A stretch of DNA of 64,000 nt from an uncultured delta proteobacterium (GTDB lineage: Bacteria; Myxococcota_A; Polyangia; Fen-1088). This document shows, in pieces, positions 5,847-29,806 of this stretch (position 1 is its first letter; each line of letters starts with the position of its first letter). Location of the stretch: the NCBI GenBank assembly GCA_963767925.1, contig CAVYGB010000009.1, positions 192,001 to 256,000 on the forward strand, written 5' to 3'. The notes below the pieces were generated by a model that saw nothing but the letters and a program-made list of their open reading frames with translations, was not told the DNA's origin and ran no database searches. Made by a program: the position numbers and the translations under genes.

Positions 5847-5867
5847 GCGGCCCGCCCGACCAGGCCA

Positions 5868-6030
5868 CCCCCCTCACCCTCCCCTCTCCCCACGGCAGAC
5901 CGCGGGGAGAGGGCAAACGGGCAACGGGTAGCCCAACCACGGCGGATCTGCCCATGATGTGATCACCGCTCGCATGAGGATTGTTCGCCCTCGCCCCGCG
6001 GCAGCGGGGAGAGGGCGGGGAGAGGGGGCT
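5868..6030. repeat. Inverted pair of REP-like palindromic repeats between convergent genes
   Basis: CCCTCACCCTCCCCTCTCCCC...GGGGAGAGGG followed by GTTCGCCCTCGCCCCGCGGCAGCGGGGAGAGGG; similar copies at 35621 and 43488. Confidence 0.7.
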
Positions 6031-6035
6031 GGGCG

Positions 6036-6749
6036 TCAGCCGACCAGGGCGAGCTTGAAGTCGGAGGTGGTGAAGGCGCCGGTGAGGACGGCGTGGGGGG
6101 CGCCGACGGTCATCGTCGCGGTGGCGTCCAGCAGGTCGAAGCGGCTGAGCGTTGTCGACATCAGGATGCGGCGCACGCCCGGTTGTTTGCTCGCGAGGTG
6201 CTTGAGGAGCTCGCGACCGTCGTCGGCGCCGAGGTAGAGGTTCACGATCGCGGTCCGGACCCGGGCGGCGATTTCCAGCACCTGGATCGCGTCCATGACC
6301 GAGGTCACCGCGAAAGAGGCGAACCCACAGCGCTGCGCCCGCTCGCGCAGGTTGCGGCAGGTCTGCTCGCTTCGATCCACGAAGACCACGTAGGCCTTTC
6401 GCATCTCTTCCAGCGCGGCCGCCACGACGGTCTGGATCGCCTGCTGATCACCTGCGGCCACGCCCAGGAAGACCACCGCGAAGACGGTCCGGTCGTGCTG
6501 GCGCCCCTCCCGGATCACCAGGGCGGGCGTCCGGATGAGCTCGCCGGTCGGGAGGGAGAAGGTCAGGGTCATCTCCTCACCCACCTCGACGGGACGGGCG
6601 CCCAGGAACAACGCGCCGTTCGCCGAGATGTTGACGGCCCGAAACTGCCCCAGCTTCGAACCGTCCCTGACCGCCGCCGCGCTGACCGCGATGGGGGCCC
6701 GTTCGTGCTGTCGCCTCTGATCGCTGACGGATTCGCCGAGCACCTTCAC
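6036..6749 (-). CDS. PilZ domain protein with C-terminal atypical receiver-like domain
   Basis: QRRQHERAP (RxxxR) and NISANG (D/NxSxxG) PilZ motifs; REC-like C-terminus with IVNLYLG in place of phospho-Asp. Confidence 0.7.
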   Translation of the reverse strand: MKVLGESVSDQRRQHERAPIAVSAAAVRDGSKLGQFRAVNISANGALFLGARPVEVGEEMTLTFSLPTGELIRTPALVIREGRQHDRTVFAVVFLGVAAGDQQAIQTVVAAALEEMRKAYVVFVDRSEQTCRNLRERAQRCGFASFAVTSVMDAIQVLEIAARVRTAIVNLYLGADDGRELLKHLASKQPGVRRILMSTTLSRFDLLDATATMTVGAPHAVLTGAFTTSDFKLALVG

Positions 6750-6938
6750 CTCAGGAAACGTTTTCTCTCAGCATGCATGGAGCCTGAACAAAGGCGACGG
6801 TGCCGCCCCACCGGCACCCCACCAATACAGGTTCTCCCCGAGGCGTGCGGCGTGTAGCGGAAGACCACACCTGCCGGTACGCCCACCTGTCCGCGTCGCT
6901 CCCGTGCACATTCGGCGCGTGGCTCAGGGGGCCGGCGA

Positions 6939-8033
6939 TCAGGGGACGGCGCCCAGGCGAGGGAAGACCGCCGTGAAGGTGGTGCCCGCCTCCAGCGACG
7001 ATCGCACGGAGGCGCGGCCACCGTGGGCCCTGGCGATCTCGTTCACGATGTAGAGGCCGAGGCCGACGCTGCGGGCCGGGTTGGCGTCCAGGGCACCGCG
7101 GGTCATGGGCTGAAACAGGCCCGGCTGAGCCTCGGGCGGGATCGGCGGGCCGAGGTTGTGAACCTCGACGGAGAAGGCGTCGGGCTCGACGCGCGAGCGC
7201 ACCGTCACCAACTCGCCGGGCTGGCCGTATGCGACGGCGTTGGACACCAGGTTGCCGATGAGCTGGGCCAGGCGGTTGCTATCCGCCGAGCAGAGGCCGC
7301 TGCCCGCGCGGACGTGTCGCAGGAGGCCGGGGTGGGAGAGGGCCAGCTCCTCGACGGCCTCCCCGACGGCCTCGTGCAGGTCGATCGGGGCGAGCGCGAT
7401 CTGGAGGCCCTTGCCGAGGCGGGCCTGGGTGAAGTCGAGCAGGTCGGCGATGAGGTGGGTGGCCCGCTCGGTGGAGCGGGTGATCCGGCTCAGCGTGCGC
7501 TGGTGGCTGGCGCTGAGATCCCCCCGAGCCAGCAGGGCCGCTCCCATCTGGATGCTCGAGAGCGGGTTGCGCAGATCGTGGCTCACGATCCCGACCATCT
7601 GCTCGGCGAAGACGGCGCGGTCCTTGGCCTCCGCCTGCAGCCGGGTGGCCTCGGCTACCAGCTCCTCGAGCCGCTTGCGCGAGAGCACCAGCTCCCGCTC
7701 GTATTTGTCGCGGTCCCGGGCGATGAAGGCGGCGATCTCGCAGACCCGGGCGCCCTGGTGCTCGCGGAGGAGGGCGTTGAACACGACGGGGATGGTGGTG
7801 CCGTCGCGGTGGAGCAGCTCGAGCTTCACCTCGGAGACGGAGCCTTGCATCTGCAGCAGGGGCGCCCAGTGCGTCTGATGGAAGATGCGCCCGCCCATGG
7901 TGAGCAGGTCCTGGAACCGGCGCTTCCCCACCAGCGCGTCGGCCGGCCGATCGATCCAGTTGCAGAACAGGCGGTTGACCCGGAGGATGGTCCCGTCGGC
8001 GGCGGTCTGGAGCAGGCCGCAGGGCGACGCCAT
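6939..8033 (-). CDS. PAS-domain sensor histidine kinase (RsbP-like PAS)
   Basis: DLLTMGGRIFHQTHWAPLL PAS; SHDLRNPL H-box; NLVSNA, GLGLYIV boxes; true start may lie slightly upstream. Confidence 0.85.
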   Translation of the reverse strand: MASPCGLLQTAADGTILRVNRLFCNWIDRPADALVGKRRFQDLLTMGGRIFHQTHWAPLLQMQGSVSEVKLELLHRDGTTIPVVFNALLREHQGARVCEIAAFIARDRDKYERELVLSRKRLEELVAEATRLQAEAKDRAVFAEQMVGIVSHDLRNPLSSIQMGAALLARGDLSASHQRTLSRITRSTERATHLIADLLDFTQARLGKGLQIALAPIDLHEAVGEAVEELALSHPGLLRHVRAGSGLCSADSNRLAQLIGNLVSNAVAYGQPGELVTVRSRVEPDAFSVEVHNLGPPIPPEAQPGLFQPMTRGALDANPARSVGLGLYIVNEIARAHGGRASVRSSLEAGTTFTAVFPRLGAVP

Positions 8034-10694: not shown

Positions 10695-10805
10695 CGCTGC
10701 AGGCTTCGACGGCCCGCGCCCGATCCTTGAGGGGCTGCTCGCCCCGCGCTCAAGCCGGGGATCGATTCCACCGACCGAGTCAGCGTCAAAAGCACCGAGG
10801 CCCAC

Positions 10806-11291
10806 TTGGCAACGCTGGCACCGCCCGAACCAGGCTCTACTCGATTTCTCATCGTCCGGGCTGCGGACCGGCTGTGTGGGCTACCGCTGGCCAGCGTCGT
10901 GGAGATCATGCGCCCCCTGCCGCTGCAGGAGCTGGCGGGGCTGCCGGCCTACCTGTGTGGCCTGGCGGTGGTGCGGGGCGAGCCGACCCCGGTTGTCGAT
11001 GTGTCGACCCTGCTCACCGGCGTCGCCGACGGCCGCATCGGCCTCTTTCTCAGCATGCGTTCGGAGGGCCGCCCGTTCGCCCTGGGGGTCGAGGCGGTGC
11101 TGGGCATGCGGGCGGTCGAGCAGGCCAGCCTGCGCGCCTTGCCCGAGCTGCTGGAGCCGGCCCGCGACCTGGTCGACAGCGTCGGCGCGGTGGGGGCCGA
11201 GCTGCTGACCGTCCTCCGCTCGAGCCGGGCCTTCGCCGACGATGTGTGGGCGGGGGTGGAGCGGGCGGCACAACGCTCGGCGGGGCCATGA
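10806..11291 (+). CDS. cheW: CheW-family coupling protein
   Basis: GLPLASVVEIMRPLP, GLAVVRGEPTPVVD; overlaps cheR start. Confidence 0.8.
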   Translation: MATLAPPEPGSTRFLIVRAADRLCGLPLASVVEIMRPLPLQELAGLPAYLCGLAVVRGEPTPVVDVSTLLTGVADGRIGLFLSMRSEGRPFALGVEAVLGMRAVEQASLRALPELLEPARDLVDSVGAVGAELLTVLRSSRAFADDVWAGVERAAQRSAGP

Positions 11292-12847
11292 CCGACGCCG
11301 ACCGCGCAGCGCTGGAGCGGTTCCGGTCGTTCGTCGCCGAACGGATGGGCTGGGAGATCCCCGACGAGAAGCTGCCCGAGCTGCACGAGCTGCTGCGCGC
11401 CCGCATGGCGGCCACCCGGGCCGACGGCTTCGAGAGCTACCTGCGCCGCCTGGTCGCCCCCGACACCACCGCCGACGAGATCCGGGAGGTGGCCCGGTTG
11501 CTCACCGTGGGGGAGAGCTACTTCTTCCGCAACCTGCACCACTTCCAGGCGCTGCTCGAGGTGGTGCTGCCCGCCCGGGCCGCGGTCCGCCCCCGCACCC
11601 GGGGGCTGACCGTGCTGTCGGCGGGGTGCTCGTCGGGGGAAGAGGCCTACACCATCGCCATGTTGCTGCGCGAGCACCCGGCCTTGACCGGGCACCTGCC
11701 CCCGCCGGCCATCACCGGCATCGACGTGAACCCGACCGTGCTCGACAAGGCCCGGCGCGGCCGCTACACGGAGTGGTCGTTGCGGGCCACCCCGCCCGCC
11801 GCCCGGCAGCGCTGGTTCCGCCGGGAAGGCGGCGAGCTGGCCCTCGACGACAGCCTCCGCAGCATGGTGCGCTTCGAGCTCGGCAACCTGGCCGACAACG
11901 CCACCGGTCCGGCGGCGCCAGCCAGCCTGGACATCATCTTCTGTCGCAACGTCTTCATCTACTTCTCGCGCGAGACCATCCGCAACGCGGTGGACTGCTT
12001 CGCCCGGGCCCTGGAGCCGGGGGGGTACCTCTTTCTCGGCGAGGCCGAGTCGCTGCGCGGGATCTCCACCGCCTTCGAGCTGTGCCACACCCACGAGACC
12101 TTCTATTACCGCCTGCGCGGCAAGCCCGAGCGCCGGGGCGCCGCTCCGCCGCCGGTCACGCCGGCGCCCGAGTGGCTGGCCCGCCCGCAGCCGGCGGCGC
12201 CCGCCGCCGCCGAGGTCCCCGGCAACGAGGCCTGGATGGACGCCATCGGCAAGGCCTCCCGCCGGGTGGCCTCGCTGAGCAAGGGGGCGGCGCGCGCGCG
12301 GGCGGGTGAGCCGGCGGCGCCGCGCGCGCGTGCTCGCCCGGCGGCCTGGGACCTGCAACCCATCCGGGCCCTCGTCGAGCAGGAGCGGGAGGCGGAGGCC
12401 CTGGCCGCGGTGGCGGCCTTGCCGAAGGAGGCCCAGGCCGATCCCGAGGTGAAGCTGCTGGCGGCCGCGCTGCAGACGAACCGGGGCGATCTGGCGGCGG
12501 CCGAGCGCACCTGCCGCGAGCTGCTGGCCCTCGACGAGTTCAACGCCGGGGCCCACTACCTGCTGGCGGTCGGCTGCGAGCAGCGGGCCGCGCTGGCCCA
12601 GGCCCTCGAGCACGACCGCATCGCCACCTACCTCGACCCGGCCTTCGCCATGCCCCGCCTGCAGATGGGGCGGCTGGCCCGCCGGTCGGGCGATCTGGCG
12701 GTGGCCCGGCGCGAGCTGCTCCGCGCGCTGGAGCTGCTCGAGGCCGAGGACGCCAGCCGCCTGGCCCTGTTCGCGGGCGGGTTCTCCCGGGAGGGGCTGC
12801 GCCAGATCTGCCGCACCGAGATCGGCGCCTGCGGAGGTGCCCCCTGA
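11288..12847 (+). CDS. cheR: CheR methyltransferase with C-terminal TPR (WspC-like)
   Basis: LTVGESYFFR, SAGCSSGEEAYTIAM, DIIFCRNVFIYF, LEPGGYLFLG; TPR tail with YLDPAFAMP. Confidence 0.9.
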   Translation: MTDADRAALERFRSFVAERMGWEIPDEKLPELHELLRARMAATRADGFESYLRRLVAPDTTADEIREVARLLTVGESYFFRNLHHFQALLEVVLPARAAVRPRTRGLTVLSAGCSSGEEAYTIAMLLREHPALTGHLPPPAITGIDVNPTVLDKARRGRYTEWSLRATPPAARQRWFRREGGELALDDSLRSMVRFELGNLADNATGPAAPASLDIIFCRNVFIYFSRETIRNAVDCFARALEPGGYLFLGEAESLRGISTAFELCHTHETFYYRLRGKPERRGAAPPPVTPAPEWLARPQPAAPAAAEVPGNEAWMDAIGKASRRVASLSKGAARARAGEPAAPRARARPAAWDLQPIRALVEQEREAEALAAVAALPKEAQADPEVKLLAAALQTNRGDLAAAERTCRELLALDEFNAGAHYLLAVGCEQRAALAQALEHDRIATYLDPAFAMPRLQMGRLARRSGDLAVARRELLRALELLEAEDASRLALFAGGFSREGLRQICRTEIGACGGAP

Positions 12848-12876
12848 GCGCAGGCGAGCCGCGCGCCGCCGCCGGC

Positions 12877-13371
12877 GTGCTGGCCCTGCGGCGGGCCTTC
12901 GACGAGGGCTTCTCCGCCCCGGCCACGGCGGGGACGGCGCTGCAGGTGGACATGCTGGCCATCGGGGTGGCCGAGCAGAACCTCATCGTGCGGCTCGACG
13001 AGGTCGGGCGCATCGCCCGCCTGCGCAAGCGGGTCCCGGTGCCGGGGGCGCGCCCGCAGCTCCTGGGCCTGGTGGCGATCCAGGATCGCCTGCTCGCGCT
13101 GTTCAGCCTGGCCGCCCTGCTGGGGCAGCGGGGCAGCGAGGCCGAGCCCTGGCTGCTGCTGCCGGCGGGCGACCAGCCGGTGGCCCTGGCCTTCGATCGC
13201 TTCGACGGCCTGGTCCGGGTCGGGCAGGCCGCCCTGGCCCGGGGCGACGGGGCGGAGGGCGACCGGTCGCTGGCTGGCGGGCTGGTGCGGGTGGGTGACC
13301 TGGTGCGGGGGGTGCTCGATCTGCGGGCGGTGCTCGAGGAGATCGGGCGGTCGTCCGGCGGGGCGGGGTGA
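12877..13371 (+). CDS. cheW: Second CheW-family protein
   Basis: [29 protein letters not shown]; operon position; start uncertain. Confidence 0.75.
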
Positions 13372-13388
13372 GGAAAAGGAGCCAAGGC

Positions 13389-14855
13389 ATGGACGGGTCG
13401 TGGTCGGTAGGAAGAAAGATCACCGGGAGCTTCGCGGTGGTGCTGGCGCTGGGGGCGTTCGTCGGGGCGGTGGCCATCGTGGCCACCGGATCGATCGTGT
13501 CCCACCAGGACCGCACCGCGCGCGAGCAGCAGGCGATGGTGGAAACCGTCCGCTTCGAGGCCCTGGTCCAGGCCAAGGTGTCCGAGGGGCGGGGGTACAT
13601 GCTGATCGGTGACCCGGCCATGTTGACCCGGCTGCAGGCCTACGAGGACCAGGGCAGCCGCCTGCTGACCGAGCTGCGCACGGGGGCTGACGATCCGGAG
13701 CTGCACCGGCTGATCGACGCCGTCGACCAGATGGACAAGGATCACACCGCCTTCACCTCCCGCTTGCTGGAGGCGCACAAGGTGGCCGGCGGCTCGGTGG
13801 CGGCGGTGCGGGAGCTGCTGCGCGAAAAGGCGCTCCGGGTCGAGCGGCTGACCGCCGCGATCCGCGCGGTGGTCGAGCAGGAGGAGCGCACCCTGGCCAG
13901 CGAGGAGAAGGCCAACGCCGCCAGCGTGTCGAGCTGGCGCACGGTGTTGCTGGTGTCCACCTGTGCCGCCATCCTGCTCGGCATCGCGCTGGCGAGCGTG
14001 CTCCGGCGCAGCCTGATCCGGGAGCTGGGGGTTGCCGTGCAGAACGTGCGCAACTCGTCGACCGAGCTGCAGGCCGCCGCCAACCAGCAGGCCACCGCCT
14101 CCAAGCAGCAGGCGGCGGCGACCAACGAGACCACCACCACCTTGCGCGAGCTGTCGGCGACCGCCCGCCAGATCGCGGAGAGCGCGCAGCGGGTGTCGGA
14201 GATCGCCGGGCAGACCACCGACGCCGCCCAGGAGGGGGATCGCACCATCCAGCGGGCCCAGGACGCGCTCGGCAGCATCAAGCGGCAGGTCGACCAGATC
14301 GTGAGCCACATGCTCGACCTCGGCAAGAAGTCGCAGCAGGTGGGGGGCATCCTCGACGTCATCAACGAGCTGGCCGAGCAGACGAACATCCTCGCCATCA
14401 ACGCCACCATCGAGGCGGCGGGGGCGGGCGACTCGGGGCGCCGGTTCGCGGTGGTGGCCGACGAGATCCGCAAGCTGGCCGACCGGGTGGGCGGCTCGAC
14501 CAAGGACATCCGGGTGCTGATCGACGAGGTGCGCACCGCCGTCAACACGACCGTGATGGCCACCGAGCAGGGGACCAAGGCGGTGGACTCGGGCATGCGC
14601 CAGGTGGGCGACGTGGCCGCCGCCTTCGGGCGCATCGCCGGCATGGTCGGGACGACGACCGAGGCGGCCAGGGAGATCGAGCTGTCGACAAAGCAGCAGA
14701 CGACCGCGGTCGACCAGGTCAACACCGCCATGGTCAACGTCTCGCAGGCGGCCAAGGAGACCGAGGCCTCGGCCAGCCAGACCCTGGCCACCGCCTCGCA
14801 GCTCGCCGGGCTGTCACGGGATCTGAACCGCCTGGTCCAGACCACGGCGGCCTAG
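13389..14855 (+). CDS. Methyl-accepting chemotaxis protein, two TM segments, CHASE3-like periplasmic domain
   Basis: [56 protein letters not shown] before ATG 13389. Confidence 0.9.
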
Positions 14856-14870
14856 CCGGTCCGGCCACCG

Positions 14871-17087
14871 ATGGGCAAGGACCCGTACAAGTACTTCCGG
14901 ATCGAAGCGCGCGAGCTGCTGGAGGGGCTCACCCAGGGCGTGCTGGCGCTGCAGGAGCGTCCGGGCGACAAGGAGCCGCTCGCCAGCCTGCTGCGGCTGG
15001 CCCACACCCTCAAGGGGGCCTCCCGGGTGGTCAAGCTGACCGCGATCGGGTCGGCCGCCCACGACATGGAGGAGCGGCTGGCTCCCCACCGCGCGGCCGG
15101 CGACGCCGTGCCGATGGCCACCACCCAGGAGCTGTTTCGCCTGATCGACGCCATCACCGGCGAGGTGAACGTCATCGCCGCCCCCGGGGCCGAGGCGCCC
15201 GCGCCGGCCGCCAGGGCGCCGGTCGCGGCGGGCAAGGGGCCAGCGGCCGGGGCCGCCGCGTCCGGGCCCAGCGCGGCGACCGACGCGGTGGCGGCTGGGG
15301 CGGCGCCCCGGTCCCTCCCGTCGGTCACGACCAAGATGACGGTTCCCGAGCGGCCGGCGGCGCCCGCCCCGACGCCCCCGCCTGCCGCGCCCGCCCCGGC
15401 CGCGCCTCTGCAGATCGCCGACACGGTCCGGGTCGAGATCGCCGACGTGGACGCGATCCTCAGCAGCCTCTCGGAGGCCACCGCCCAGGTGTCGGCCCTG
15501 CGCCAGGGGGCGCTGGCGGGCAAGCGGGTGCGCGACCTGGTCAACGCCCTCGGGCTGGCCCTGGGCCGGGCGCCGCCGGGCGCGCTCGAAAGCGTGCGGG
15601 GGCTGCTCGGCGATCTCACCGCCGCCTCGACTCAGAGCGAGCGGCCGCTGGCCGCGGGGGTCGACCGCCTCGACCGCGAGCTGGGTCAGGTGCGCGACAA
15701 GGTCAGCCAGCTCCGGCTGTTGCCCGCCCAGACCATCTTCGCCCCGCTGATCCGGGCGGCCAACGACGCCGCCGATTCGCTGGGCAAGCGGATCGAGGTC
15801 AGCAGCGCGGGCGGGGAGGCCCGGCTGGAGGCCCACGTCCTGTCGCGGGTGCGGGCGGCGCTGCTGCACATGGTGCGCAACGCCGTGGCCCACGGCATCG
15901 AGCCGGCGGCGGCCCGCCTGGCCGCCGGCAAGCCCGCCGCCGGCCGGGTCGAGATCCGGGCCCAGCGCCGGGGCAACGAGGTCACCTTCGTCTGCCTCGA
16001 CGACGGCCGGGGCATCGACTGGGAGGCCGTGCGCCGGACCGCCGTCGAGCGCGGCCTCTGCCCGCCCGAGCAGGTGGGGACCCTCGACACCCGGCGGTTG
16101 ACCCAGGTGCTGCTGGGCGGGGGGGTCAGCACCACCCGGGTCGTCGACGAGGTCTCGGGCCGCGGCGTTGGCCTCAACGTCGTCGACGAGGTGGTACGCG
16201 AGCTGCGCGGGACCTTCGTCCTCGAGAGCACCCCGGGGGCCGGCGCCCGCTTCGCCCTCACCATCCCCATCTCCATGTCGGCGCTGACCGCCATCGCCCT
16301 CGAGGTGGGCGGGCACCGGGTCTGGCTGCCGCTCGAGGCGGTTGGCCACACCGTGCGCGTGCCGGCCGACCAGATCGTCCGCTCGAGCGACGGGGAGACC
16401 ATCTTGTACGAGGAGCAGGCCATCCCCTTCGCCGCCCTCGACCGGGTGCTGAACCTCCCCTCCCCGACCGGGGCGGCCAGCTATTCGGCCGCCCTCATCG
16501 AGGTGGACGGCCGCTGCGCCGCGGTCGGCGCCGAGCGGCTGGGCGAGGTGGCTACCATCGTGGTGCGGCCCATCCCTCCGGTGGCCGGCGCCCCCGCCCT
16601 GGTGGGCGGCGCGACCCTCGACGCCGAGGGCAACCCGGTGCTGGTGCTCAGCCCGGCCGGCCTGGTCGAGGCGGTGACCGCCGCCCGGGCCCGCCGGGAG
16701 GAGGCGCCCCGCAAGGTGGAGAAGCAGCCCATCCTGGTCATCGACGACTCGCTCACGACCCGCATGCTCGAGCAGAGCATCCTCGAGGCCGCCGGCTACG
16801 AGGTCGACACCGCGGTCTCCGCCGAGGACGGGCTCAAGAAGGCCAACGAGCGGCGCTACGGCCTGTTCCTCGTCGACGTCGAGATGCCCGGCATGAACGG
16901 CTTCGAGTTCGTGGCCCACACGAGGGCCCAGCCTGCGTTTCGTGACATCCCCGCCATCCTCGTGACGTCGCTGTCGTCGGCGGAGCACCGGCGGCGGGGC
17001 GCCGAGGTGGGCGCCTATGCCTACATGGTGAAGGGGGAATACGACGAGGGGAGGCTGCGGCAGCTCATCCGCAGCGTGATCGGGTGA
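14871..17087 (+). CDS. cheA: Hybrid CheA kinase with C-terminal receiver (WspE/FrzE-like)
   Basis: AHTLKGAS Hpt; HMVRNAVAHGIE, DDGRGID, SGRGVGL; CheW domain; IDDSLTTRMLEQSILEAAGY receiver. Confidence 0.9.
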   Translation: MGKDPYKYFRIEARELLEGLTQGVLALQERPGDKEPLASLLRLAHTLKGASRVVKLTAIGSAAHDMEERLAPHRAAGDAVPMATTQELFRLIDAITGEVNVIAAPGAEAPAPAARAPVAAGKGPAAGAAASGPSAATDAVAAGAAPRSLPSVTTKMTVPERPAAPAPTPPPAAPAPAAPLQIADTVRVEIADVDAILSSLSEATAQVSALRQGALAGKRVRDLVNALGLALGRAPPGALESVRGLLGDLTAASTQSERPLAAGVDRLDRELGQVRDKVSQLRLLPAQTIFAPLIRAANDAADSLGKRIEVSSAGGEARLEAHVLSRVRAALLHMVRNAVAHGIEPAAARLAAGKPAAGRVEIRAQRRGNEVTFVCLDDGRGIDWEAVRRTAVERGLCPPEQVGTLDTRRLTQVLLGGGVSTTRVVDEVSGRGVGLNVVDEVVRELRGTFVLESTPGAGARFALTIPISMSALTAIALEVGGHRVWLPLEAVGHTVRVPADQIVRSSDGETILYEEQAIPFAALDRVLNLPSPTGAASYSAALIEVDGRCAAVGAERLGEVATIVVRPIPPVAGAPALVGGATLDAEGNPVLVLSPAGLVEAVTAARARREEAPRKVEKQPILVIDDSLTTRMLEQSILEAAGYEVDTAVSAEDGLKKANERRYGLFLVDVEMPGMNGFEFVAHTRAQPAFRDIPAILVTSLSSAEHRRRGAEVGAYAYMVKGEYDEGRLRQLIRSVIG

Positions 17088-18189
17088 GCGCGGCCAAGAT
17101 CCGGGTCCTGGTGGCGGAGGACTCCCTCACCATCCGCAAGCGGCTGTGTGAGGTGCTGTCCTCCGATCCCGCCCTCGAGGTGGTGGGCGAGGCGGCCGAC
17201 GGGGCCCAGGCGGTGCACCTGTGCCGCACGTTGCGCCCGAGCATCATGACCCTGGACATGATGATGCCGAAGATGAACGGCCTCGCCGTCACCGAGGAGG
17301 TGATGGCCTACGCCCCCACGCCGATCCTCATCGTGTCGGCCTCCGCCAACCGGGGCGAGCTGTTCACCACCTTCGAGGCGCTGGCCGCCGGCGCCGTCGA
17401 CGTGCTCGACAAGCCGAGCGGCGACGAGGCGGCCGAGGCCTGGGAGCGCAAGCTCATCGCCCGGGTCAAGCTCGTCTCCCGCATCAAGGTGATCACCCAC
17501 CCCCGGGGCAAGCTGCAGCCGCGTGAGCCGCAGGCGCCGGCGGTCAGCAGCAGCAGCGCCAGCCTGCCGATCGCCGGCGGGGTGACCTTTGAGTCGATCT
17601 CCGGGGGTCCGCGCCCCCGCCTGGTGGCGATCGGCGCCTCGACCGGCGGCCCCAGCGCCATAACCACCGTGCTGCGCCAGCTCCCCGCCAGCTACCCGCT
17701 GCCGATCCTGTTCGTGATCCACATCGGCCAGCCGTTCGGGCAGTCCTTCGCCGAATGGCTCGACAGCCAGTCGCCCATCCGCGTCCGCATGGCGACCGAC
17801 CGCCAGCCCTTGCCCCAGCCGGGCCAGCCCATCGTCCTGGTGGCGCCCCCCGACAAGCACCTGACCGTCGAGCGGGGCTACCTCCGGGTGCAGGGGGGGC
17901 CGGAGCGCCACTCCTGCCGCCCCTCGGTCGACGTGATGTTCGAGTCGCTGGCCCGGGAGATGGGGCGCGACGTGGTGGCCGGTCTGCTGACCGGCATGGG
18001 GCGCGACGGCGCCGACGGGCTGCTGGCCCTGCGCAAGGCGGGGGCCCTCACCCTGGCCCAGAACGAGGAGACCTCGGTGGTGTGGGGCATGCCGCGCGAG
18101 GCGATCGAGCTCGGCGCCGCCCGCTACGTCGTGGGGCTGGACGAGCTGGCGGCCAAGCTGGTGCAGATCGCCAACGGGAGCCCGCTGCC

Positions 18190-18193
<4 letters not shown>
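17084..18193 (+). CDS. cheB: CheB methylesterase response regulator
   Basis: REC plus [30 protein letters not shown]. Confidence 0.92.
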
Positions 18194-21669
<3,476 letters not shown>

Positions 21670-21859
21670 CTCCGAGCGCGCCTGGCGCGGGTCGCATCAT
21701 CCCGGCACCGCCCGCAGGGACCCGGCAGGCACGACCTGGCTGTCGTGCTTCGGTTGCTGACGCAAGCCAACAGCCGGCGCGTTCGGCGGCCTACCGGCTG
21801 GATCCTCTCTTGCTGATCAGCTGATCACCTCGCAGTGACCAGTCCGTCATCGGGATGCC

Positions 21860-22440
21860 CTTGGGTGTCAGCGGCGGTGGGCACCGACACAACCGCAGGT
21901 GGGATCGCCAGACGCGGACGCGGGCGATGCAGGAGAAGACGCCTCGCCGGATCTCTTCCCGGCGGATCGAGCATCGGAAGACGTGAATCCAGGCCCGGAT
22001 GAACGCCAAGCGGATGCTGGAGACGATGATGGTCTGAGCCTGCAACAATGCGCCCCTTTCACAGAGGCCCGGCCGGCTGCGTTCGCTCATCATCCCCACA
22101 ACGCCCTGACCATGGAAGGCGGTTGGGCCCCCCAGGATTTCTCCGGCCCCGGACGGGTCACGGTCATCAACCGCTCCGACAGAATTGACTTCATCGGGTC
22201 GAATTGATGACCTCAGGTGCCTGTCCTGACCTTCCTGACAAAAAACCGTACCTGTACATTCTTCGGCCGAACGTCGATTGGGGCCTCCAGCTGGGCGATG
22301 AAGTGAAGGTTAGCCTGATAGGGAACGGTGTCTTTACCGACCTTTGGCGGGCAGGCATGAATGGAGCCGTCGTCTTTGATGAAGGAGGAAACCTCACCGA
22401 AGAGACAAAACTCCTCCGGAACCATCCGTCGCCAAGCTGA
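21860..22440 (+). pseudogene. Disrupted hypothetical lipoprotein in lower-GC segment
   Basis: ALGC lipobox-like motif in frame upstream of ORF 21899, DAG-rich stalk; split over ORFs 21899-22207 and 22204-22440. Confidence 0.3.
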
Positions 22441-22448
22441 AGTGCTCG

Positions 22449-22770
22449 ATGAAAAGACCCGCGCTACGACGTACACGGTCCTTGCCTGCCAGCGGAGCGG
22501 CGTCGGCCTCGCTGGCTGGACGCCGGACGCCGGTCGGTTCGAGTATCCCGGCCGAGGCCCTTCCGGCCGCGCTTCGCGACCTTTTCTGGAGTTACGACTT
22601 CGCGCAGTTGCGGCTTCCGGACGATCTCGACCTCGTCATGCTCCACGTCCTCAACTACGGGAAGCCCTCCCATCGTCGGTGGCTAGAGCAGCGCTTCGGT
22701 GACGTTGGCATCCGCCGCTGGATCCTCCGGCAGCGTGGCAGAGGACTGACCGTCAAGCAGATGTCTCGGT
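22449..22770 (+). pseudogene. DUF6922-like small protein, C-terminally disrupted
   Basis: LRDLFWSYDFAQL...VMLHVLNYGKPSHRRWLEQRFG pattern; ORF then runs antisense into next gene. Confidence 0.55.
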
Positions 22771-23217
22771 CTAGTTGTCTGCGGCGGCGTCCCTGTTCCC
22801 GCCGCCGAAACAACCTCGGAGCGGAACGCCCAGGCACCGACCCTCCGCGCACCGTGCCTCGTTGTGTCCGCAGTCGAAATGTCCGGTTGTCCGCCGACAG
22901 CCAGCGCGCGAGAAGTCTTCGCGGAGGCTTCCGGCAGACGACCTGGCAAAAGCCGCTCGGTTCACTGTCGCCCTGCAGGTGTCGTCGATGTTTTCGGCCT
23001 TGTAGAGCGCTTCGCAGGTGTCGTTGTTACCCGCCATCAAGAGACAGTCCGAGTCTCTTGCGCAGGAGCGATCCATCGCGGCGACCGTTCGCCTCCATTC
23101 CGCTTCCAGGTCGGAACAATCCTGGTTCCTGCAGGAAGTCTGGCCTGCAAGCACAAGCCAAACCGTGAGGCTGGAGATCGTGGCGCGATAGGATCGTCTC
23201 ATCGATAGCCCCATCCT
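22771..23217 (-). CDS. Cys-rich hypothetical secreted/lipoprotein
   Basis: Hydrophobic N-terminus; SCARDSDC and ARCAEGRC motifs typical of myxobacterial Cys-rich proteins; start uncertain. Confidence 0.45.
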   Translation of the reverse strand, partial: RMGLSMRRSYRATISSLTVWLVLAGQTSCRNQDCSDLEAEWRRTVAAMDRSCARDSDCLLMAGNNDTCEALYKAENIDDTCRATVNRAAFARSSAGSLREDFSRAGCRRTTGHFDCGHNEARCAEGRCLGVPLRGCFGGGNRDAAADN

Positions 23218-23601
23218 GTCCTCGGGCCGCACGTTGGCTGGGTGAATCACATGACCACATCCCAGTAGATGTGCGACTGCGAATCCAAGGAGAGCGAAGC
23301 GAAGGCGCATCCAGCCCGATCCTTAGCCTGGCGGAGACTCCAGAGAGCTCGACAGCTTCGAATCTCGAATGTGCTGTTCCCGGGGCATTTCCGTGCAAGC
23401 CAGGAGTCGGTGGCGGTAGCCGGATTCCTTCAGGGTGGGCCTTCGGGTCCTGGCGATCGTGGCTCTCCCTGGAACCTCGCACGAGCCCGCAGCAGCGGGC
23501 GGGGCAGGGTGGGGGGTGGGCTTGCCCTACCCGGGGCGGGGGCTGTGCGGGTGGGGCCTTCGGTCGGGGCGGGGATCGTCCGAAAAGGGGGACGGGGCCA
23601 C

Positions 23602-24438
23602 ATGCCGGGGCAGCCATCTTCGAGCCATGCGGATGAACCGTCGGGAGTGGGCGGGCAGGGGCGGCGGCGGGCGCCCGATGAGGCCCTGCGCCTGCTGGTG
23701 CGGCACCAGTGGGTGCGCGAGCACGACACGCCCCGGGTCACGGTGCTGGCCGGGGCGCCGCGCAGCGGCCGGGCCCTGTGGGAGGAGTGGCTGGCGCTCG
23801 CCGGTCGCCCGCGTCCGGCCCACCCCGTGTTCGAGCAGCCGGCGCGGGTGGACGGGGCCTGGCTGGATCGCACGGCCCGCCGCGCGGTCGAGCTGGCGGT
23901 AGCGGCCCCCCGGGCGCCGATTGCCCTCGCCGTGGCGCCCACTCTGCTCGATGGCTGGCTGGGCACCCGGGAGGATCGCCTGGCCGCGGTTGTGCGCGAG
24001 GGGATCGTCCGCCTGCGTGGCACCACCCGCCGCACCCGACCGGTGCGGGTCGCGGCGCCCGGCGGGGACCCCCGGTTTCTCCGCAAGGCCCGCAGCCTGG
24101 GCGAGCTGACCCTGTTCGAGGCGCTGGAGGCCACCCCGGCGACCCGGGGTCGCTTCGAGCTAAACGCCCTCATCAGCGTCGACTTCGGGGGGCGCCCCGC
24201 CGAGGTCGACCTGCTGTCGCGGGCCGACGAGATCGCCATCGAGATCGACGGCTACCACCACTTCACCGACGAGCGCGGCTACCGCCGCGACCGGCGCAAG
24301 GACCTGGTGCTGCAGGCCCATGGCTACGCCGTCCTTCGCTTCCTGGCCACCGACGTCCAGAGCAACACCCGCGATGCCGTCCGCACGGTCATCGAGCTGA
24401 TCGGCCAGCGCCGCCGCCACAGGAGGATCCAACGATGA
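23602..24438 (+). CDS. DUF559 (Vsr-like PD-(D/E)xK) endonuclease domain protein with N-terminal extension
   Basis: ARSLGELTLFEAL, EVDLL, IAIEIDGYHHF, YRRDRRKDLVLQAHGYAVLRF. Confidence 0.85.
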   Translation: MPGQPSSSHADEPSGVGGQGRRRAPDEALRLLVRHQWVREHDTPRVTVLAGAPRSGRALWEEWLALAGRPRPAHPVFEQPARVDGAWLDRTARRAVELAVAAPRAPIALAVAPTLLDGWLGTREDRLAAVVREGIVRLRGTTRRTRPVRVAAPGGDPRFLRKARSLGELTLFEALEATPATRGRFELNALISVDFGGRPAEVDLLSRADEIAIEIDGYHHFTDERGYRRDRRKDLVLQAHGYAVLRFLATDVQSNTRDAVRTVIELIGQRRRHRRIQR

Positions 24439-25604
24439 CCGAGACCCCGCAGCTCTCCAGCGAACACCCGCCCCTGCCGGCCGCCGCGCCCGACGTGATC
24501 CCGCAGCGCCTCGACGATCTGATCGTCGTGCGCCTGGCCTCGCTCAAGGAGCCCGACTCGCCGAAGGACCTGGCCCGCACCCTGCGCGCGCTGGCCCCGC
24601 TGGGCTACAGCGACGCCGACTGGCGCGCGCGCATCGAGGAGGCGCTGGCCCGGCTGCAGGCGGCCGGGATCGTCGACGGGCGCCGGAAGGCGCCGGGCGC
24701 GGAGGCCAGCCTGGCCCGGATGGGCCTGCGGCCAGCCGACGCCTGGCGGTACATCCAGGGCCGCTTCTTGCCGGGGATCGGCCTGGGGATCGAGCCCCAC
24801 GACAAGGCCACGCACGACCGTCTCACCAAGCCCGAGCACTGGGCCGCCGCGGTGGTCGCGCGCGTGCACGGCCTCTGGCGCGAGGGGCGCGTGCCCTCGT
24901 TCCCCGACACCTGCGACGCCCTGGTCTGGCGCTCGTTCCAGCTCACCGGCAAGCCCAAGCGCTCCCCCAACCAGGTCCGGGCCTACGTCCTGGCCCGCAT
25001 GCTGGGCCAGCCCGGCCCCTCCGCCGAGCGCCTGATGTGTTACCTGGCCGCCCGCGACGTGGGCGCCGTCCGCGCCGACGCCATCAAGCTGCGCGAGGCC
25101 CTCTGCCGCCGCTGGCTCGCCGGCGCCGACTGGCCGCCCGCCGACCGCCCCGCCGCGCCGGCCGCGTCGCCGCCGCCCCGCCTGGCGACCGTCCCCAACG
25201 TCGCCCTGGTGCCGCCGCTGGCGCCGGCCGGTGGGACCCCGCCGGTCGCGTCCATCTCCTCGGCCGGAGAGGCCGCTGCTCAGCCCGCCGCCGGAAGGCC
25301 GCTGGCCCTCCCCGAGTTCGCCGCCATCGTTCGCCAGGCGGCGGCCCGCGCCACCGAGGGCGTCTTCGGCCGCTACAAGGTCTTCATCGCTCCCCTGTGG
25401 CGCGCCCTGCGCACCCACCCGGCCCTCGGCGACCTCTCCCTCGACGCCTTCAAGCGCGAGCTGGTAGCAGCCAACCGCGCCGGCCTCCTCACCCTGGCCC
25501 GGGCCGACATGGCGGCCGTCCTCAGCCCGCGCGAGATCGCCGAGTCGGAGACCCGCCACCTCGAGGCCGAATATCACTTCGTCGAGCGGGAGGAGACGCC
25601 GTGA
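24435..25604 (+). CDS. Hypothetical protein (389 aa), possibly winged-helix-like domains at both ends
   Basis: AGGAGG RBS; ATGA overlap with upstream gene; GC3-rich codon usage; C-terminal FGRYKVFIAPLW...FKRELVAANRAGLLTLARAD...YHFV. Confidence 0.75.
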   Translation: MTETPQLSSEHPPLPAAAPDVIPQRLDDLIVVRLASLKEPDSPKDLARTLRALAPLGYSDADWRARIEEALARLQAAGIVDGRRKAPGAEASLARMGLRPADAWRYIQGRFLPGIGLGIEPHDKATHDRLTKPEHWAAAVVARVHGLWREGRVPSFPDTCDALVWRSFQLTGKPKRSPNQVRAYVLARMLGQPGPSAERLMCYLAARDVGAVRADAIKLREALCRRWLAGADWPPADRPAAPAASPPPRLATVPNVALVPPLAPAGGTPPVASISSAGEAAAQPAAGRPLALPEFAAIVRQAAARATEGVFGRYKVFIAPLWRALRTHPALGDLSLDAFKRELVAANRAGLLTLARADMAAVLSPREIAESETRHLEAEYHFVEREETP

Positions 25605-28600
25605 GCCCGGCGCGGGAGCCGATCGCCGCGGCCGACCTGGACCGCTGGCTGAACGCCGCCGTCCAGCGCATGAACGCCGCCCTGACCGGCGCCCGGCGCG
25701 ACGAGGTCATCGCCGCCCTGAAGAAGGAGCTGGGCGTCGACGCCTCGTTTCGCCTGATGGCCTCCCTGTCGTTGCTGTCCGACTGCCTGCGCGTGGCCCA
25801 CCTGGCCATCGAGGCCGACGGCCAGGCCGACCCCGAGGAGATCGTCCGCGTCTCCCCGGTCGTCGCGGTGGCGGCGCCCCGCTATTTCCAGGTGGTCTCC
25901 GGCTACGAGCCGTTCGGCGAGGTGGAGCCCGGGTCCTCCCACGTGGTCGAGTTCCTGCGGGCCCACAAACACGACCCGGGCCCCTTCGGCAACGGGAGCA
26001 CGAGTGAATGGCGCGGCTTGCAGCTGTGCGAGCGGGTGGGCGACCTGGCCCGGGACGAGACGCTGGTCCGCGACCACGAGCGGATGCTGGTGCGGATCAT
26101 GGAGACCGTGTTCGCCGGCCGCGACACCGAGGTCGAGCGGAGCGCCCACCAGGAGCTGGCGGATCTCTTCGAGCGCACGCGCAGCGCCGGCCGCGACCCC
26201 CGCGTCTCCGCCTTCTGCCGCCCCGACGGCCCCGAGGTGTTCTCCTCCGTGGCTCACGGATCCCAGGTCTTCCAGCGCGACCCCTTCGACGTCGAGTCGA
26301 TCCACGGCGAGGCCCGCTCCGCCTTCATGACCCAGATCGAGCGGGTGATCGCCCCCCGCAGCGCGGGCGCCGGCCACGGGCGCCTGATGCTGGTCAGCGG
26401 CCGGGCCGGCAGCGGCAAGACCCACCTCCTGCGGGCCTTTCGCACCGCGGTCCACGAGGTCGGCCTGGGCTACGTCGGCTACCTGCAGATGTCCTCCGAC
26501 GTCGGCGACTACGCCCGCTACGTCCTCATCAAGCTGATCGACTCGCTCGAGCGCCCCTACGATCCCCCGTCGGTGTCGGAGCCGGCCCTGCTCTGCCTGT
26601 CCGACAGCCTTGTCGAACACGCCGGCGCGCTCCCCCGGGCGGCGGTCGACCGCCTGCGCTCGGCCGAGATCCCGCCGGCGGAGCTGTCGACGTTCGTCGG
26701 TGGCCTCGTCGATCGGCTATCCCGGGTGCCGGCGCTGGCCAGCGCCGACAGCGATCTGCTGCAGGCCCTCCTGCTGCTGCAGCGGCGGGATCCGGCCGTG
26801 CAGCGCCGGATCGTGAAGTTTCTGCGCTGCGAGTCCCTGACCGCGCACGAGCAGCAGCTCCTCGGGGGCCTGGCGTCCCGCCTGCAACCGGAAGATCCCG
26901 GGCGCACCATCGAGCAGATCGGCCAGCTCGCCTTCGCCCTCGACGGCAAGGCGCTGGTTCTGCTTGTCGACCAGATCGAGGACGCCATCCCCGACGCCAG
27001 CAACCACGCGCGGATCCAGCGGGCGATCAACGTGCTCCGCCGGATCGCCGACGCCGTCCCGTCGACCCTTGTCGTCCTGGCCTGCCTCGACGACATGTAC
27101 GAACGGATCCGGGGCAAGCTCGAGCCGTCGGTCATCGACCGGATCGAGCGCGATCCCCCGCCGGTGCGGCTGGTGGCCCACCGCAGCCGGGCGGAGATCG
27201 AGAAGATGCTCGTGGTCCGCCTGGAGCACCTGTACGAGGCGCTCGACGTCTCCTGGCGCGACGAGGAGCCGCTGTTTCCCTTCAACGCCGATCAGCTCGA
27301 CGAGCTGGCCAACCAGCGGGCCCGCGACTGCCTGGCGTTCTTCCACAAGTACCAGCAGCAGTGCATCGCCGCGCGCGACCTGGTCACGGCTCCGCTGCCG
27401 CCGGTGGCGGGAGATCCATTGGCCCCTACCGAGAAGTTCGACTTCGATCGCGCCTGGAGCGATGCCCTGGTGGCGACGACCTCCGGACCGGACGACGATC
27501 TCGACCTGCTACGCACCATCGAGCGCGGGCTCCTGGCCGGCAGCGACGAGGCTACAGTCGAGATCGCCACCCGGTTGACGACCGAGTCGGCGCCCCGGCT
27601 GTCGCTCAAGTTCGGAGATCGCCCGCTGTCGCCGCGGGTGATCGAGCTGTGCAACAAGCAGGCGCAAGGCGGCGGCCTGGGCGGGCAGCTCGAGAAGCTG
27701 CGCAAGAGCGTCAAGCCGGGCGAGATCGCGGTGGCCCTGCGGACCTCCGGGTTCTCCTTCGGGTCGAAGACGGCGGTGGCGCGGGCGGTGGGCGAGTTGG
27801 TCAGGGCCGGCGGCCTGGCCGTCACGGTGGAGGACGGCGACCTCCGCGCGATCGCCGCCCTCGAGGCCTTCACGGCCGCCCACGGCGGCGAGCCGGGTTT
27901 TCGGGAATGGCGACGCCGGGCGCGGCCTCTGACCGGCTCGAACCTCTTCCAGAAGCTCCTCGATATCGAGGGCGTGCGGCCGGTCGCGCCGCCCCCCGTT
28001 TTGGGCGACGGTCAGAAGCGAGTCTCCGGTAACCCCGCCCCCACCTCCTCGGCGACCAACGGCCACCCACCGATCGTGCATCCCGAGGCAACGCCGCCCG
28101 GCCGGCAGATCCGCCTGGGCGCCACCCTCACCATGCGCGCGGACCCGGTCACCCTCGACGTCGAGGCGCTGAAGATGCACGCCGCCTTCCTGGGCGGCAC
28201 CGGCAGCGGCAAGACCACCCTGGTCCTCAACGTCATCGAGCAGCTCCTGGAGCGGGGCGTCTCCGCCCTCATGGTGGATCGCAAGGGCGACCTCGCCCGT
28301 TACGCCAGCGCCGCCTGGTGGGACGAGGTCCCGGCCGACCCCGAGGCGGCCCGCCGCAAGGCCGCCCTGCGCGCCCGCGTCGACGTCGACCTCTTCACCC
28401 CGGGCGACGCCAGCGGCCGGCCCCTGCGCATTCCCCTGATCCCGCCCGGGATGGCCGAGATGCCCAGCCAGGAGCGCGATCAGATGGCCAAGATCGCCGC
28501 CAGCGGCCTGGCCGCGATGCTCGAGTACCGTAAGGGCGCCGGCTACAAGTTCCGGGAGGCCATCCTCAAGAAGGCCATCGAGCTGCACGCCGACAACGGT

Positions 28601-29389
28601 CCGGCCTCCCTGCGCGACCTGCAGGACACCATCTCCCGGCCGGATCCCGAGCTGATCGCCCAGGTCGGCAACCTGACCAAACACTTCAGCAAGCTCGCCG
28701 AGGACCTCGATTGGCTCGGCATCCAGCGGGGCAGCTTGCTCTCCGGGGACGGCGAGGTCCTCGACCTCTCCACCTTGCTGAAGCCGCAGCCGGGGCGGTC
28801 GCGCCTGGTGATCATCAGCGCGGTGGCCTTGACCGAGGCGTCGATCCTGCAGTTCTGGGTCTCCCGGCTGCTGGTCGAGCTGGCCCGCCTGGTGAAGCGC
28901 GACCCCAGCCCCACCTTGCGGGCAGTGGCCTTCTTCGACGAGGCCGACCTGTACATCCCGGCCGTCTCCTCGCCGCCCACCAAGGAGCCGATGTTCGATC
29001 TGCTGCGCCGGGCCCGGTCGGGTGGGGTGGGGATCCTGCTCGCCTCGCAGAACACCGGCGACTTCGACTACAAGGCCCGGGACAACATCAACACCTGGTG
29101 CCTGGGCAAGATCGCCCAGGACCGGGCCATCGAGAAGATGCGCAACCTCCTGTCGGGTTACCCCAACGTCGCCACCCGCCTGGCCAGCCAGAGCACCGGC
29201 AGCTTCTTCCTCCTCAACCCCACCCTGGTCCCCGCCACCCGCGAGCTGCGCGCCGACCGCTCGCTGATGAAGACCGAGCAGCTCCCCGACCACGAGGTAG
29301 CCGCCATCGCCCAGGCCAGCCGCCCCACCCCCCCACCCCCCACCGGCCGCCCCAGCTCCCGCCAAACCCCCACCCGCCGCGCCGCCTGA
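25601..29389 (+). CDS. Dual P-loop ATPase: TerB-like N-terminus, AAA/STAND-like ATPase, C-terminal HerA/DUF87 ATPase
   Basis: GTGA overlap; GRAGSGKTHLL plus VLLVDQIE; HAAFLGGTGSGKTT, VDRKGD, FFDEAD, RRARSGGVGILLASQ. Confidence 0.85.
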   Translation: MSPAREPIAAADLDRWLNAAVQRMNAALTGARRDEVIAALKKELGVDASFRLMASLSLLSDCLRVAHLAIEADGQADPEEIVRVSPVVAVAAPRYFQVVSGYEPFGEVEPGSSHVVEFLRAHKHDPGPFGNGSTSEWRGLQLCERVGDLARDETLVRDHERMLVRIMETVFAGRDTEVERSAHQELADLFERTRSAGRDPRVSAFCRPDGPEVFSSVAHGSQVFQRDPFDVESIHGEARSAFMTQIERVIAPRSAGAGHGRLMLVSGRAGSGKTHLLRAFRTAVHEVGLGYVGYLQMSSDVGDYARYVLIKLIDSLERPYDPPSVSEPALLCLSDSLVEHAGALPRAAVDRLRSAEIPPAELSTFVGGLVDRLSRVPALASADSDLLQALLLLQRRDPAVQRRIVKFLRCESLTAHEQQLLGGLASRLQPEDPGRTIEQIGQLAFALDGKALVLLVDQIEDAIPDASNHARIQRAINVLRRIADAVPSTLVVLACLDDMYERIRGKLEPSVIDRIERDPPPVRLVAHRSRAEIEKMLVVRLEHLYEALDVSWRDEEPLFPFNADQLDELANQRARDCLAFFHKYQQQCIAARDLVTAPLPPVAGDPLAPTEKFDFDRAWSDALVATTSGPDDDLDLLRTIERGLLAGSDEATVEIATRLTTESAPRLSLKFGDRPLSPRVIELCNKQAQGGGLGGQLEKLRKSVKPGEIAVALRTSGFSFGSKTAVARAVGELVRAGGLAVTVEDGDLRAIAALEAFTAAHGGEPGFREWRRRARPLTGSNLFQKLLDIEGVRPVAPPPVLGDGQKRVSGNPAPTSSATNGHPPIVHPEATPPGRQIRLGATLTMRADPVTLDVEALKMHAAFLGGTGSGKTTLVLNVIEQLLERGVSALMVDRKGDLARYASAAWWDEVPADPEAARRKAALRARVDVDLFTPGDASGRPLRIPLIPPGMAEMPSQERDQMAKIAASGLAAMLEYRKGAGYKFREAILKKAIELHADNGPASLRDLQDTISRPDPELIAQVGNLTKHFSKLAEDLDWLGIQRGSLLSGDGEVLDLSTLLKPQPGRSRLVIISAVALTEASILQFWVSRLLVELARLVKRDPSPTLRAVAFFDEADLYIPAVSSPPTKEPMFDLLRRARSGGVGILLASQNTGDFDYKARDNINTWCLGKIAQDRAIEKMRNLLSGYPNVATRLASQSTGSFFLLNPTLVPATRELRADRSLMKTEQLPDHEVAAIAQASRPTPPPPTGRPSSRQTPTRRAA

Positions 29390-29499
29390 CCCCGGGTCTC
29401 CCGCGGAGCGGGTCGTCGCGGTGCAACCGGAGTCGCTCCGCAGGTGCCCTCGTGGTCATGTGCACGAAGACCGGCTTTCACCCCTGATCCACGTCTCCG

Positions 29500-29806
29500 G
29501 ATCGGCTCAAGGGGCGAAAGGACCCAGGTCTTCGTGAGCGCGGCCTCTGCGTGGGAGATCGCGACGAAAGTCCGACTGGGGAAGCTCGTCTGGAAGCCCT
29601 CCGAGTCGGTGCAATCGTATTGTTCGAGTCAGAGTTTCGACCTCCTGCCCGTGACGTTCGCCCACGGCGAAAAGGCCGGGGCCTGGCCCCAGCCGCACGG
29701 CGATCCGTTCGTTCGGATGCTCGCCGCGCAGAGCGCCCTCGAGAACCTTCCGCTGGCGACCGACGATCCGAAGGTCGAAGGATTCGGGGTCGAGACGATC
29801 TGGTAG
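29500..29806 (+). pseudogene. vapC: VapC/PIN toxin remnant, N-terminus missing
   Basis: VFVSAASAWEIATKVRLGKL, HGDPFVRMLAAQ, LATDD; lacks N-terminal LLDT motif; DPFDR is DPFVR; no antitoxin. Confidence 0.75.

Follow-up and report, generated by a model that had tools for sequence, protein, structure and literature searches.

Three overlapping genes and their products

We analysed a stretch of 64,000 nucleotides (nt) from an uncultured delta proteobacterium (assembly GCA_963767925.1, contig CAVYGB010000009.1, positions 192,001 to 256,000 of the forward strand), hereafter the window, and in it three adjacent genes at positions 23602 to 29389. These genes (g1, g2 and g3; together, the triad) encode a DUF559/Vsr-like nuclease, a protein of 389 amino acids (aa) with two modelled winged-helix-like domains, and a 1262-aa fusion of two ATPases. 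Since the G+C content of the window is ~72%, long spurious open reading frames (ORFs) are common in it. A third-position GC frame plot placed coding-frame switches at ~23600, 24435 and 25600, all on the + strand. Among 8000 scored candidates, 332 were homologues of g3 at E<=1e-3, while a g2 profile search of 1.84 billion representatives matched 2494 clusters at E<=1e-3, of which 523 reached E<=1e-30. As the numbers of g3 and g2 homologues show, the genes of the triad are real; they are laid out as follows.

23602..24438, + strand: g1, a 278-aa nuclease (frame plot, Pfam DUF559, homologue alignment over aa 26-274 in 9 loci)
24418..24438, + strand: g1/g2 junction, with AGGAGG, a 7-nt spacer and a 4-nt ATGA start/stop overlap
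24435..25604, + strand: g2, 389 aa, with winged-helix-like domains at both ends, a helical middle and a disordered linker rich in Pro and Ala (AlphaFold, VIA-align)
25587..25604, + strand: g2/g3 junction, with GGGAGGAG, a 5-nt spacer and a 4-nt GTGA start/stop overlap
25601..29389, + strand: g3, a 1262-aa fusion of a helical N-domain, an AAA+ ATPase of the Orc/Cdc6 clade, an alpha/beta middle domain, a Pro-rich linker and a HerA/FtsK-type ATPase

The junctions read caggaggatccaacgATGAcc (g1/g2) and cgggaggagacgccGTGAgc (g2/g3). Together with the frame plot, they bear out the coordinates and description given in an earlier, first-pass annotation of this DNA, which had reported three co-directional genes with ATGA and GTGA overlaps and ribosome-binding sites. 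Among related loci, an overlap of 1 or 4 nt joins g2 and g3 in all 12 that were examined, and joins g1 and g2 at 7 of 11 junctions when the nearest start codon was taken. The three genes are translationally coupled, and we read them as one operon. Around it, we found no sigma-70-like promoter, and terminator-like sites were not above chance.

The g1 protein matched Pfam DUF559 over aa 160-265 with 33.8 bits, against a cut-off of 20.6.

24079..24396, + strand: DUF559/Vsr-like endonuclease domain of g1 (aa 160-265), with E201, D203, E214, D216, G217 and H220, including the EIDG motif

When g1 was aligned over nearly its whole length with nine homologues from related loci, E201, D203, E214, D216, G217, H220, R228, D230, K233 and D234 were invariant in 10 of 10 sequences. 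The first-pass annotation of g1 as an intact DUF559/Vsr-like endonuclease therefore holds, as the Pfam match is above the cut-off and the catalytic-type residues are conserved. We conclude that g1 carries a DUF559/Vsr-type restriction-fold nuclease domain with conserved acidic and His residues, whose activity is predicted. The protein belongs to DUF559 (PF04480; structure 3hrl) both by a match above the gathering score and by the D...ExDG...H pattern. A g1-family profile aligned end to end with 3hrl over 98 residues, at a weak E of 0.059. The ESM Atlas clusters nearest g1 all carried DUF559; one neighbour was labelled AbiJ-NTD3 at a score of only 0.79, which is a lead at most. A search of PHROGs with g1 returned nothing.

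Many DUF559 proteins stand alone. In contrast, g1 has an additional conserved N-terminal domain of ~110 aa (about aa 26-135; motif QWVRxHGTPRVTVL) and is fixed in an operon with g2 and g3. The N-terminal domain is as conserved as the nuclease domain, and no family could be assigned to it.

For g2, no family was matched in Pfam, NCBIfam, PADLOC or PHROG. An AlphaFold model (mean pLDDT, the predicted local distance difference test, 74; ~90 in the N-terminal block) showed three helices and a hairpin as one unit at aa 17-128, a helical domain extending to aa 230 and, at aa 290-389, a second unit that is small and alpha/beta.

24483..24818, + strand: N-terminal winged-helix-like domain of g2 (aa 17-128)
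25137..25295, + strand: disordered linker of g2 (aa 235-287; pLDDT <50), variable in length and gapped in the alignment
25302..25601, + strand: C-terminal winged-helix-like domain of g2 (aa 290-389), with a conserved HLEAxYHFVER tail

VIA-align returned winged-helix-like matches for both ends of the protein, and a Foldseek search of the PDB with the model returned nothing at E<=0.001. In its 14 homologues, two blocks are conserved, and the linker between them differs in length. Of the three genes, g2 has diverged most rapidly as judged from tblastn identity, which is ~30-45% over long matches compared with ~43-48% for g1 and 45-58% for g3. The 389-aa protein, which the first-pass annotation had listed as unknown, models as a twin winged-helix-like protein. 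Complex prediction for g1 and g2 with alignment inputs scored 0.01 against a mark of 0.32, a result that counts neither way.

The C-terminal unit of g2 also occurs elsewhere. Among 15 longer hits of the g2 search (498-693 aa; P0160, P0192, P0198, P0215-P0277), each protein contained 2-4 matched stretches, and 10 of the 15 carried a response-regulator receiver domain at E<=1e-3, with four of these 10 reaching the Pfam cut-off. The multiple stretches and receiver domains suggest that this unit is a portable, probably DNA-binding, output module. It may represent an undescribed output domain of two-component systems.

The first-pass annotation had assigned g3 two complete ATPase domains, the second of HerA/FtsK type. 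Pfam matches and conserved Walker motifs agree: AAA_22 and AAA_16 matched around aa 243-428, DUF87 and HerA_C matched above their cut-offs from aa 837, and in each domain the Walker A and B motifs were invariant or nearly so across 31 homologues. The protein can be divided as follows.

25601..26176, + strand: N-terminal all-helical domain (aa 1-192), eight helices, pLDDT about 83-93
26177..26293, + strand: conserved, predicted-disordered segment (aa 193-231), pLDDT 25-41
26306..27370, + strand: Orc/Cdc6-clade AAA+ ATPase (aa 236-590), with Walker A GRAGSGKTH (G267-H275) and Walker B VDQIED (D457, Q458, E460)
27443..27970, + strand: middle alpha/beta domain (aa 615-790), a candidate inactive restriction fold, possibly with a helical or winged-helix end
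28109..29230, + strand: HerA/FtsK-type ATPase (aa 837-1210), with Walker A GGTGSGKT (about 865-872) and Walker B FFDEAD (1111-1116)

In a fold search with g3, the best matches of the first ATPase were ORC, Cdc6, TnsC, MuB and Hda, all of the initiator clade, rather than STAND ATPases; a BrxC-like fold was also recovered. Foldseek of the PDB with a model of aa 1-830 gave nothing at E<=0.001, though probabilities were high for AAA+ matches. In the modelled fold, the first ATPase thus belongs specifically to the Orc/Cdc6 clade. Its Walker B (aa 457-460; window 26969-26980) reads D-Q-I-E, and the Gln that follows the Asp was invariant in 31 sequences. Since the motif has D-Q instead of D-E, slow hydrolysis is suggested, and this ATPase may act as a slow switch. 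The motif resembles the engineered, hydrolysis-deficient E-to-Q state.

The second ATPase matched the PADLOC model mad8 with E 4.3e-24 over profile positions 18-288 of 314, and PDB profile matches were to YjgR, archaeal HerA and defence-associated HerA (8wiv, 8xau, 7f6d). The PADLOC and NCBIfam HerA models matched g3 around the P-loop only and far below their cut-offs; NF042943 (HerA_antiphage) gave 12.9 bits and NF040937 gave 15.3 bits, where the cut-off is 800 for both. Away from the triad, the genome has another HerA-like ORF, of 538 aa, which is distant and shares 28% identity with the HerA domain of g3 (L002, G000:C8:960274-961245).

The remaining parts of g3 are harder to place. A profile of the helical N-domain had no PDB match below E 0.16 and Pfam matches at chance level only, and an ESM Atlas search with aa 1-245 gave no usable match. 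Its motif AIEADGxxDxxE resembles TerB-like or EF-hand-like metal-binding motifs, and EF-hand_5 matched at E 0.068 in three of 12 members; we did not adopt this reading. Variants of g3 of 1042-1063 aa start near aa 195 and do not have this domain (L010; P0041, P0043, P0057, P0087, P0114); in L010, a g2 homologue is still directly upstream. The predicted-disordered segment at aa 193-231 is among the most conserved stretches of the protein, with many invariant residues, such as D199, R201, R207, D209, P211, V213, F214, D227, P228 and D230, and could be a partner-binding or regulatory motif. In the model, the middle domain consists of a helix (633-651), three strands (655-660, 666-671, 679-683), a helix (692-703) and a strand (709-714), an order that would suit a restriction-endonuclease fold. 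A conserved acidic triad was not among its invariant residues, and its profile had one match in the PDB, at E 0.83. The fold search hardly covered this domain, and hhalign revealed no kinship between it and the g1 family (probability 0.1).

Distribution and neighbours of related loci

We assembled 19 related loci from Kofleriaceae, Haliangiales, Myxococcales and metagenome-assembled genomes labelled 'Deltaproteobacteria', and determined gene order by local tblastn. Homologues of g2 and g3 shared contigs. In all 12 loci that retained upstream DNA, g2 was directly upstream of g3, and g1 was upstream of g2 in nine of 10 loci with enough sequence. The neighbourhood comparison proposed in the first-pass annotation therefore reveals that the three genes are co-conserved in order. 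In the locus without g1 (L022), the ORF upstream of g2 was examined as a candidate and is not a g1 relative. Positions 1-7000 of that locus, upstream of g2, have a G+C content of 0.64-0.68, compared to 0.70-0.76 in the rest, and contain short ORFs only, as if this were decayed or foreign DNA.

The triad is present in one copy in its genome and is rare outside it. Full-length g3 was found in none of the 40 closest relatives; five had matches, all confined to the HerA domain. Across the phylum, g3 was detected at E<=1e-50 in at least five of 400 genomes sampled. In a genome of the same genus (G001), g1 (60% identity) and g2 (45% identity) are present with the ATGA overlap kept (L032, G001:C18, 5656-7646, minus strand), and g3 is a 58-codon stub in which 31 residues still align. 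This pair sits between Hsp70/DnaJ-type genes and a DUF5990 gene, a site that differs from the chemosensory context of the window. Flanking genes differed in all 11 loci examined, and transposase genes adjoin the triad in two of them (L009 and L023). The rarity, the differing sites and the G001 stub show that the triad is a rare accessory module that changes position and decays. The core-genome distribution that the first-pass annotation had named, together with the lack of a phenotype, as counter-evidence was not seen.

We scanned the genes within 8 kb of the triad in 11 loci with PADLOC at E<=1e-8. Strong, near-full-length defence genes were present in four of them.

L014: BrxL (E 3e-122) and a second mad8-like gene
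L017: ZorD/DpdE-type SNF2 (1.7e-124), PDC-S48 exonuclease (8e-91) and NERD helicase
L019: type IV methyl-directed restriction endonuclease (REase) and SoFic
L023: PD-Lambda-1 (5e-127) and type IV methyl-directed REase

Across loci, the E-values of the type IV methyl-directed REases were 8e-218 and 1.5e-176. We discounted as generic the matches of a Ser/Thr kinase (PD-T4-6, mad6; L013) and an aminotransferase (SspA, DndA; L009). In L014, the BrxL gene and a separate 387-aa mad8-like ATPase (E 3.6e-31, matching to the end of the model) lie at 15237-19779, 3.5-8 kb downstream of the triad, which suggests that a BREX- or MADS-like system occupies the same island.

Relation to predicted capture systems and to other machineries

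As set out in the available part of PMC10853773 (Nucleic Acids Research (NAR) 2024), comparative genomics predicts mobile neighbourhoods that couple HerA/FtsK to an Orc/CDC6 ATPase, termed 'HerA/FtsK capture systems'. Their core domains are given there as Orc/CDC6, an inactive REase inserted before a C-terminal winged helix-turn-helix (wHTH), an active REase of either of two families, HerA/FtsK and wHTH. These domains are spread over one or several polypeptides, the inactive REase insert is called invariable, and a subset of systems has one more, fast-evolving gene that encodes 2-4 wHTH domains. The authors propose that Orc/CDC6 places the apparatus on DNA and that HerA/FtsK intercepts the selfish element (PMC10853773). 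The class is restated in the part of PMC12839542 (NAR 2026) available to us.

Measured against that description, the triad shares four of six features: an AAA+ ATPase of the Orc/CDC6 family, a HerA/FtsK ATPase domain (Pfam, PDB profile and Walker motifs), a wHTH module resembling the extra, fast-evolving multi-wHTH gene, and mobile, variable neighbourhoods. For the inactive REase insert and the nuclease family, the comparison was undecided either way. Where capture systems have an active REase, the triad has a DUF559/Vsr-type nuclease, and neither Vsr nor DUF559 is mentioned in the main text of PMC10853773 or PMC12839542 as far as these were available. Thus, the first-pass view that the combination is undescribed must be revised, since this class, which the triad fits closely, had already been predicted in silico in these two sources.

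We think it rather likely that the triad is an accessory anti-phage or anti-plasmid 'capture-and-cut' module of the Orc/CDC6-HerA/FtsK capture class; it is a probable new member of a defence class predicted in silico. In a mechanism compatible with this assignment, g2, perhaps with the helical N-domain of g3, would recognise or localise to foreign DNA, and the Orc/Cdc6 module of g3 would serve as an ATP-dependent DNA-loading or assembly switch. The HerA/FtsK domain would then oligomerise to a ring and translocate the captured duplex, and the g1 nuclease, docked via its own N-terminal domain, would cleave it. The first-pass annotation had proposed a sensor-ATPase or translocase that activates a nuclease against phage or plasmid DNA. 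The domains, the accessory spread and the defence neighbours are in line with that proposal, while its mechanism stays at the level of inference.

A narrower version, to which we give distinctly less credence, holds that the triad is a distinct, modification-independent and self-contained subtype, in which a twin winged-helix reader and an Orc/Cdc6-type loader would put the HerA/FtsK ring on DNA that is then reeled into a Vsr-family nuclease. If this is true, DUF559 nucleases would gain a new role, that of effectors in translocase-driven immunity.

Several observations weigh against assignment to the capture class. The inactive REase insert was not confirmed in g3, where we found only a compatible alpha/beta topology, while the available text of PMC10853773 makes it part of the core. 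G001 retains intact g1 and g2 without g3; thus, the pair is at least tolerated alone. Seven of the 11 related loci had no strong defence neighbour. Two weaker PADLOC matches, to an IetA-like AAA ATPase (L015) and a mad3-like ABC-type ATPase (L024), are of a generic ATPase kind and were discounted; control ORFs behaved similarly, as 27 other ORFs of the window gave no strong PADLOC match and three generic ones, including mad3 at 3e-33. In the window, the triad is flanked not by defence systems but by a chemosensory cluster, a DUF4440 gene and a PIN-domain fragment. Since the count of defence neighbours was made without a matched genome-wide background, the defence association is not quantified and is suggestive only. 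The defence-island check foreseen in the first-pass annotation revealed strong defence genes near some loci. Finally, the literature searched contained no experimental study of any Orc/CDC6-HerA system.

We considered three other explanations. In one, the triad would act by abortive infection: the Orc/Cdc6 part, behaving like a STAND ATPase, would sense an invader cue, oligomerise and free the nuclease to act on any DNA, including that of the host. However, the fold matches of the first ATPase are to initiator-clade proteins and not to STAND, and a fused HerA/FtsK translocase with a twin winged-helix partner better suits the handling of a DNA substrate than pure signalling, making this explanation improbable. 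We regard as equally improbable that the triad is mobile-element machinery for target choice, DNA transfer, partition or packaging, with a TnsC/MuB-type regulator, an FtsK-like pump and a TnsA-like nuclease. The likeness to Tn7 and Mu is that TnsC and MuB are Orc/Cdc6-related AAA+ ATPases. However, no TnsA/TnsB and no conserved transposase, integrase or relaxase lies beside the triad in the 11 loci or the window, and the triad is single-copy. Flanking direct or inverted repeats in the window were not convincing (best arms 18-38 nt at 70-90% in 72% GC DNA), and we found no tRNA gene near the triad.

HerA/FtsK ATPases serve repair and segregation elsewhere, and Vsr-type nucleases act in very-short-patch repair. 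The triad could therefore be housekeeping machinery for DNA repair or chromosome processing, comparable to HerA-NurA end resection or FtsK-type segregation. Against this, full-length g3 is missing from the closest relatives and rare in the phylum, synteny is not conserved, g3 has been deleted in same-genus G001, and g3 falls far short of the cut-offs of the NCBIfam HerA equivalog models. A repair or partition machine, which the first-pass annotation had kept as its alternative, is disfavoured because of this patchy distribution, and we consider it very improbable.

The triad also differs from other systems with related ATPases. The PADLOC search proposed in the first-pass annotation matched no named system, as had been expected; the mad8 and HerA models matched at the domain level only, in the second ATPase. 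According to the available parts of the sources, MADS of Pseudomonas aeruginosa has eight genes in one operon, among them those for a methylase, a specificity subunit and a kinase (PMC13662399; bioRxiv 10.1101/2023.03.30.534895), and its MAD7-MAD8 form an ATPase-nuclease module (PMC13662399). The likeness is limited to the mad8-like second ATPase of g3: no methylase, specificity subunit or kinase lies in or beside the triad, and g1 and g2 had no mad match at E<=0.1. With Sir2-HerA, DUF4297-HerA and archaeal HerA-NurA, the triad shares a HerA-family ATPase encoded alongside a nuclease-type effector, but neither g1 nor g2 belongs to the Sir2, DUF4297 or NurA family. Moreover, HerA in g3 is fused behind an Orc/Cdc6 ATPase, after a Pro-rich linker, and no HAS-barrel was identified, no structural search having been aimed at one. 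BREX shares only the BrxC/PglY-like fold of the first ATPase, and no PglX, PglZ, BrxA or BrxB accompanies the triad in the scanned region of the window or in related loci.

Orc/CDC6-HerA/FtsK capture systems are so far a comparative-genomics prediction only. The triad has clear mutable motifs, namely K273, D457 and E460 in the first ATPase, K871 and E1114 in the second, and D203, E214 and D216 in the nuclease. Together with the compact three-gene form, these make it a tractable candidate with which to examine at the bench, for the first time, whether a replication-initiator-type ATPase cooperates with a DNA pump to intercept foreign DNA. With a positive outcome, one branch of the DUF559 family, which is very large and mostly uncharacterised, would gain a role, as would a winged-helix family that has thousands of metagenomic members. 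If inactive, the triad would be one more rare accessory operon of Myxococcota-like bacteria.

Surroundings of the triad in the window

Upstream of the triad, a complete chemosensory cluster occupies window positions 10731-21669. It encodes CheW, a methyl-accepting chemotaxis protein with CHASE3, CheA-CheW-REC, CheB and a hybrid histidine kinase of 1304 aa with five receiver domains and an Hpt domain. Genes for PilZ, GGDEF and PAS-kinase proteins lie further upstream.

Downstream, at 29444-29806 on the + strand, a 120-aa ORF begins 55 nt after g3. It matches the PIN domain over profile positions 29-113 of 120 only (E 8.7e-6). The ORF, which none of the other loci contains, resembles a fragment of VapC type and is not preceded by an antitoxin gene.

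Between the hybrid kinase gene and g1, ~1.9 kb (21700-23600) have a weak coding signal and a G+C content of 0.66, compared to about 0.72-0.75. The sole family match in this interval was to DUF6922, below threshold, in an ORF at 22449-23168. The interval may be left over from whatever introduced the triad.

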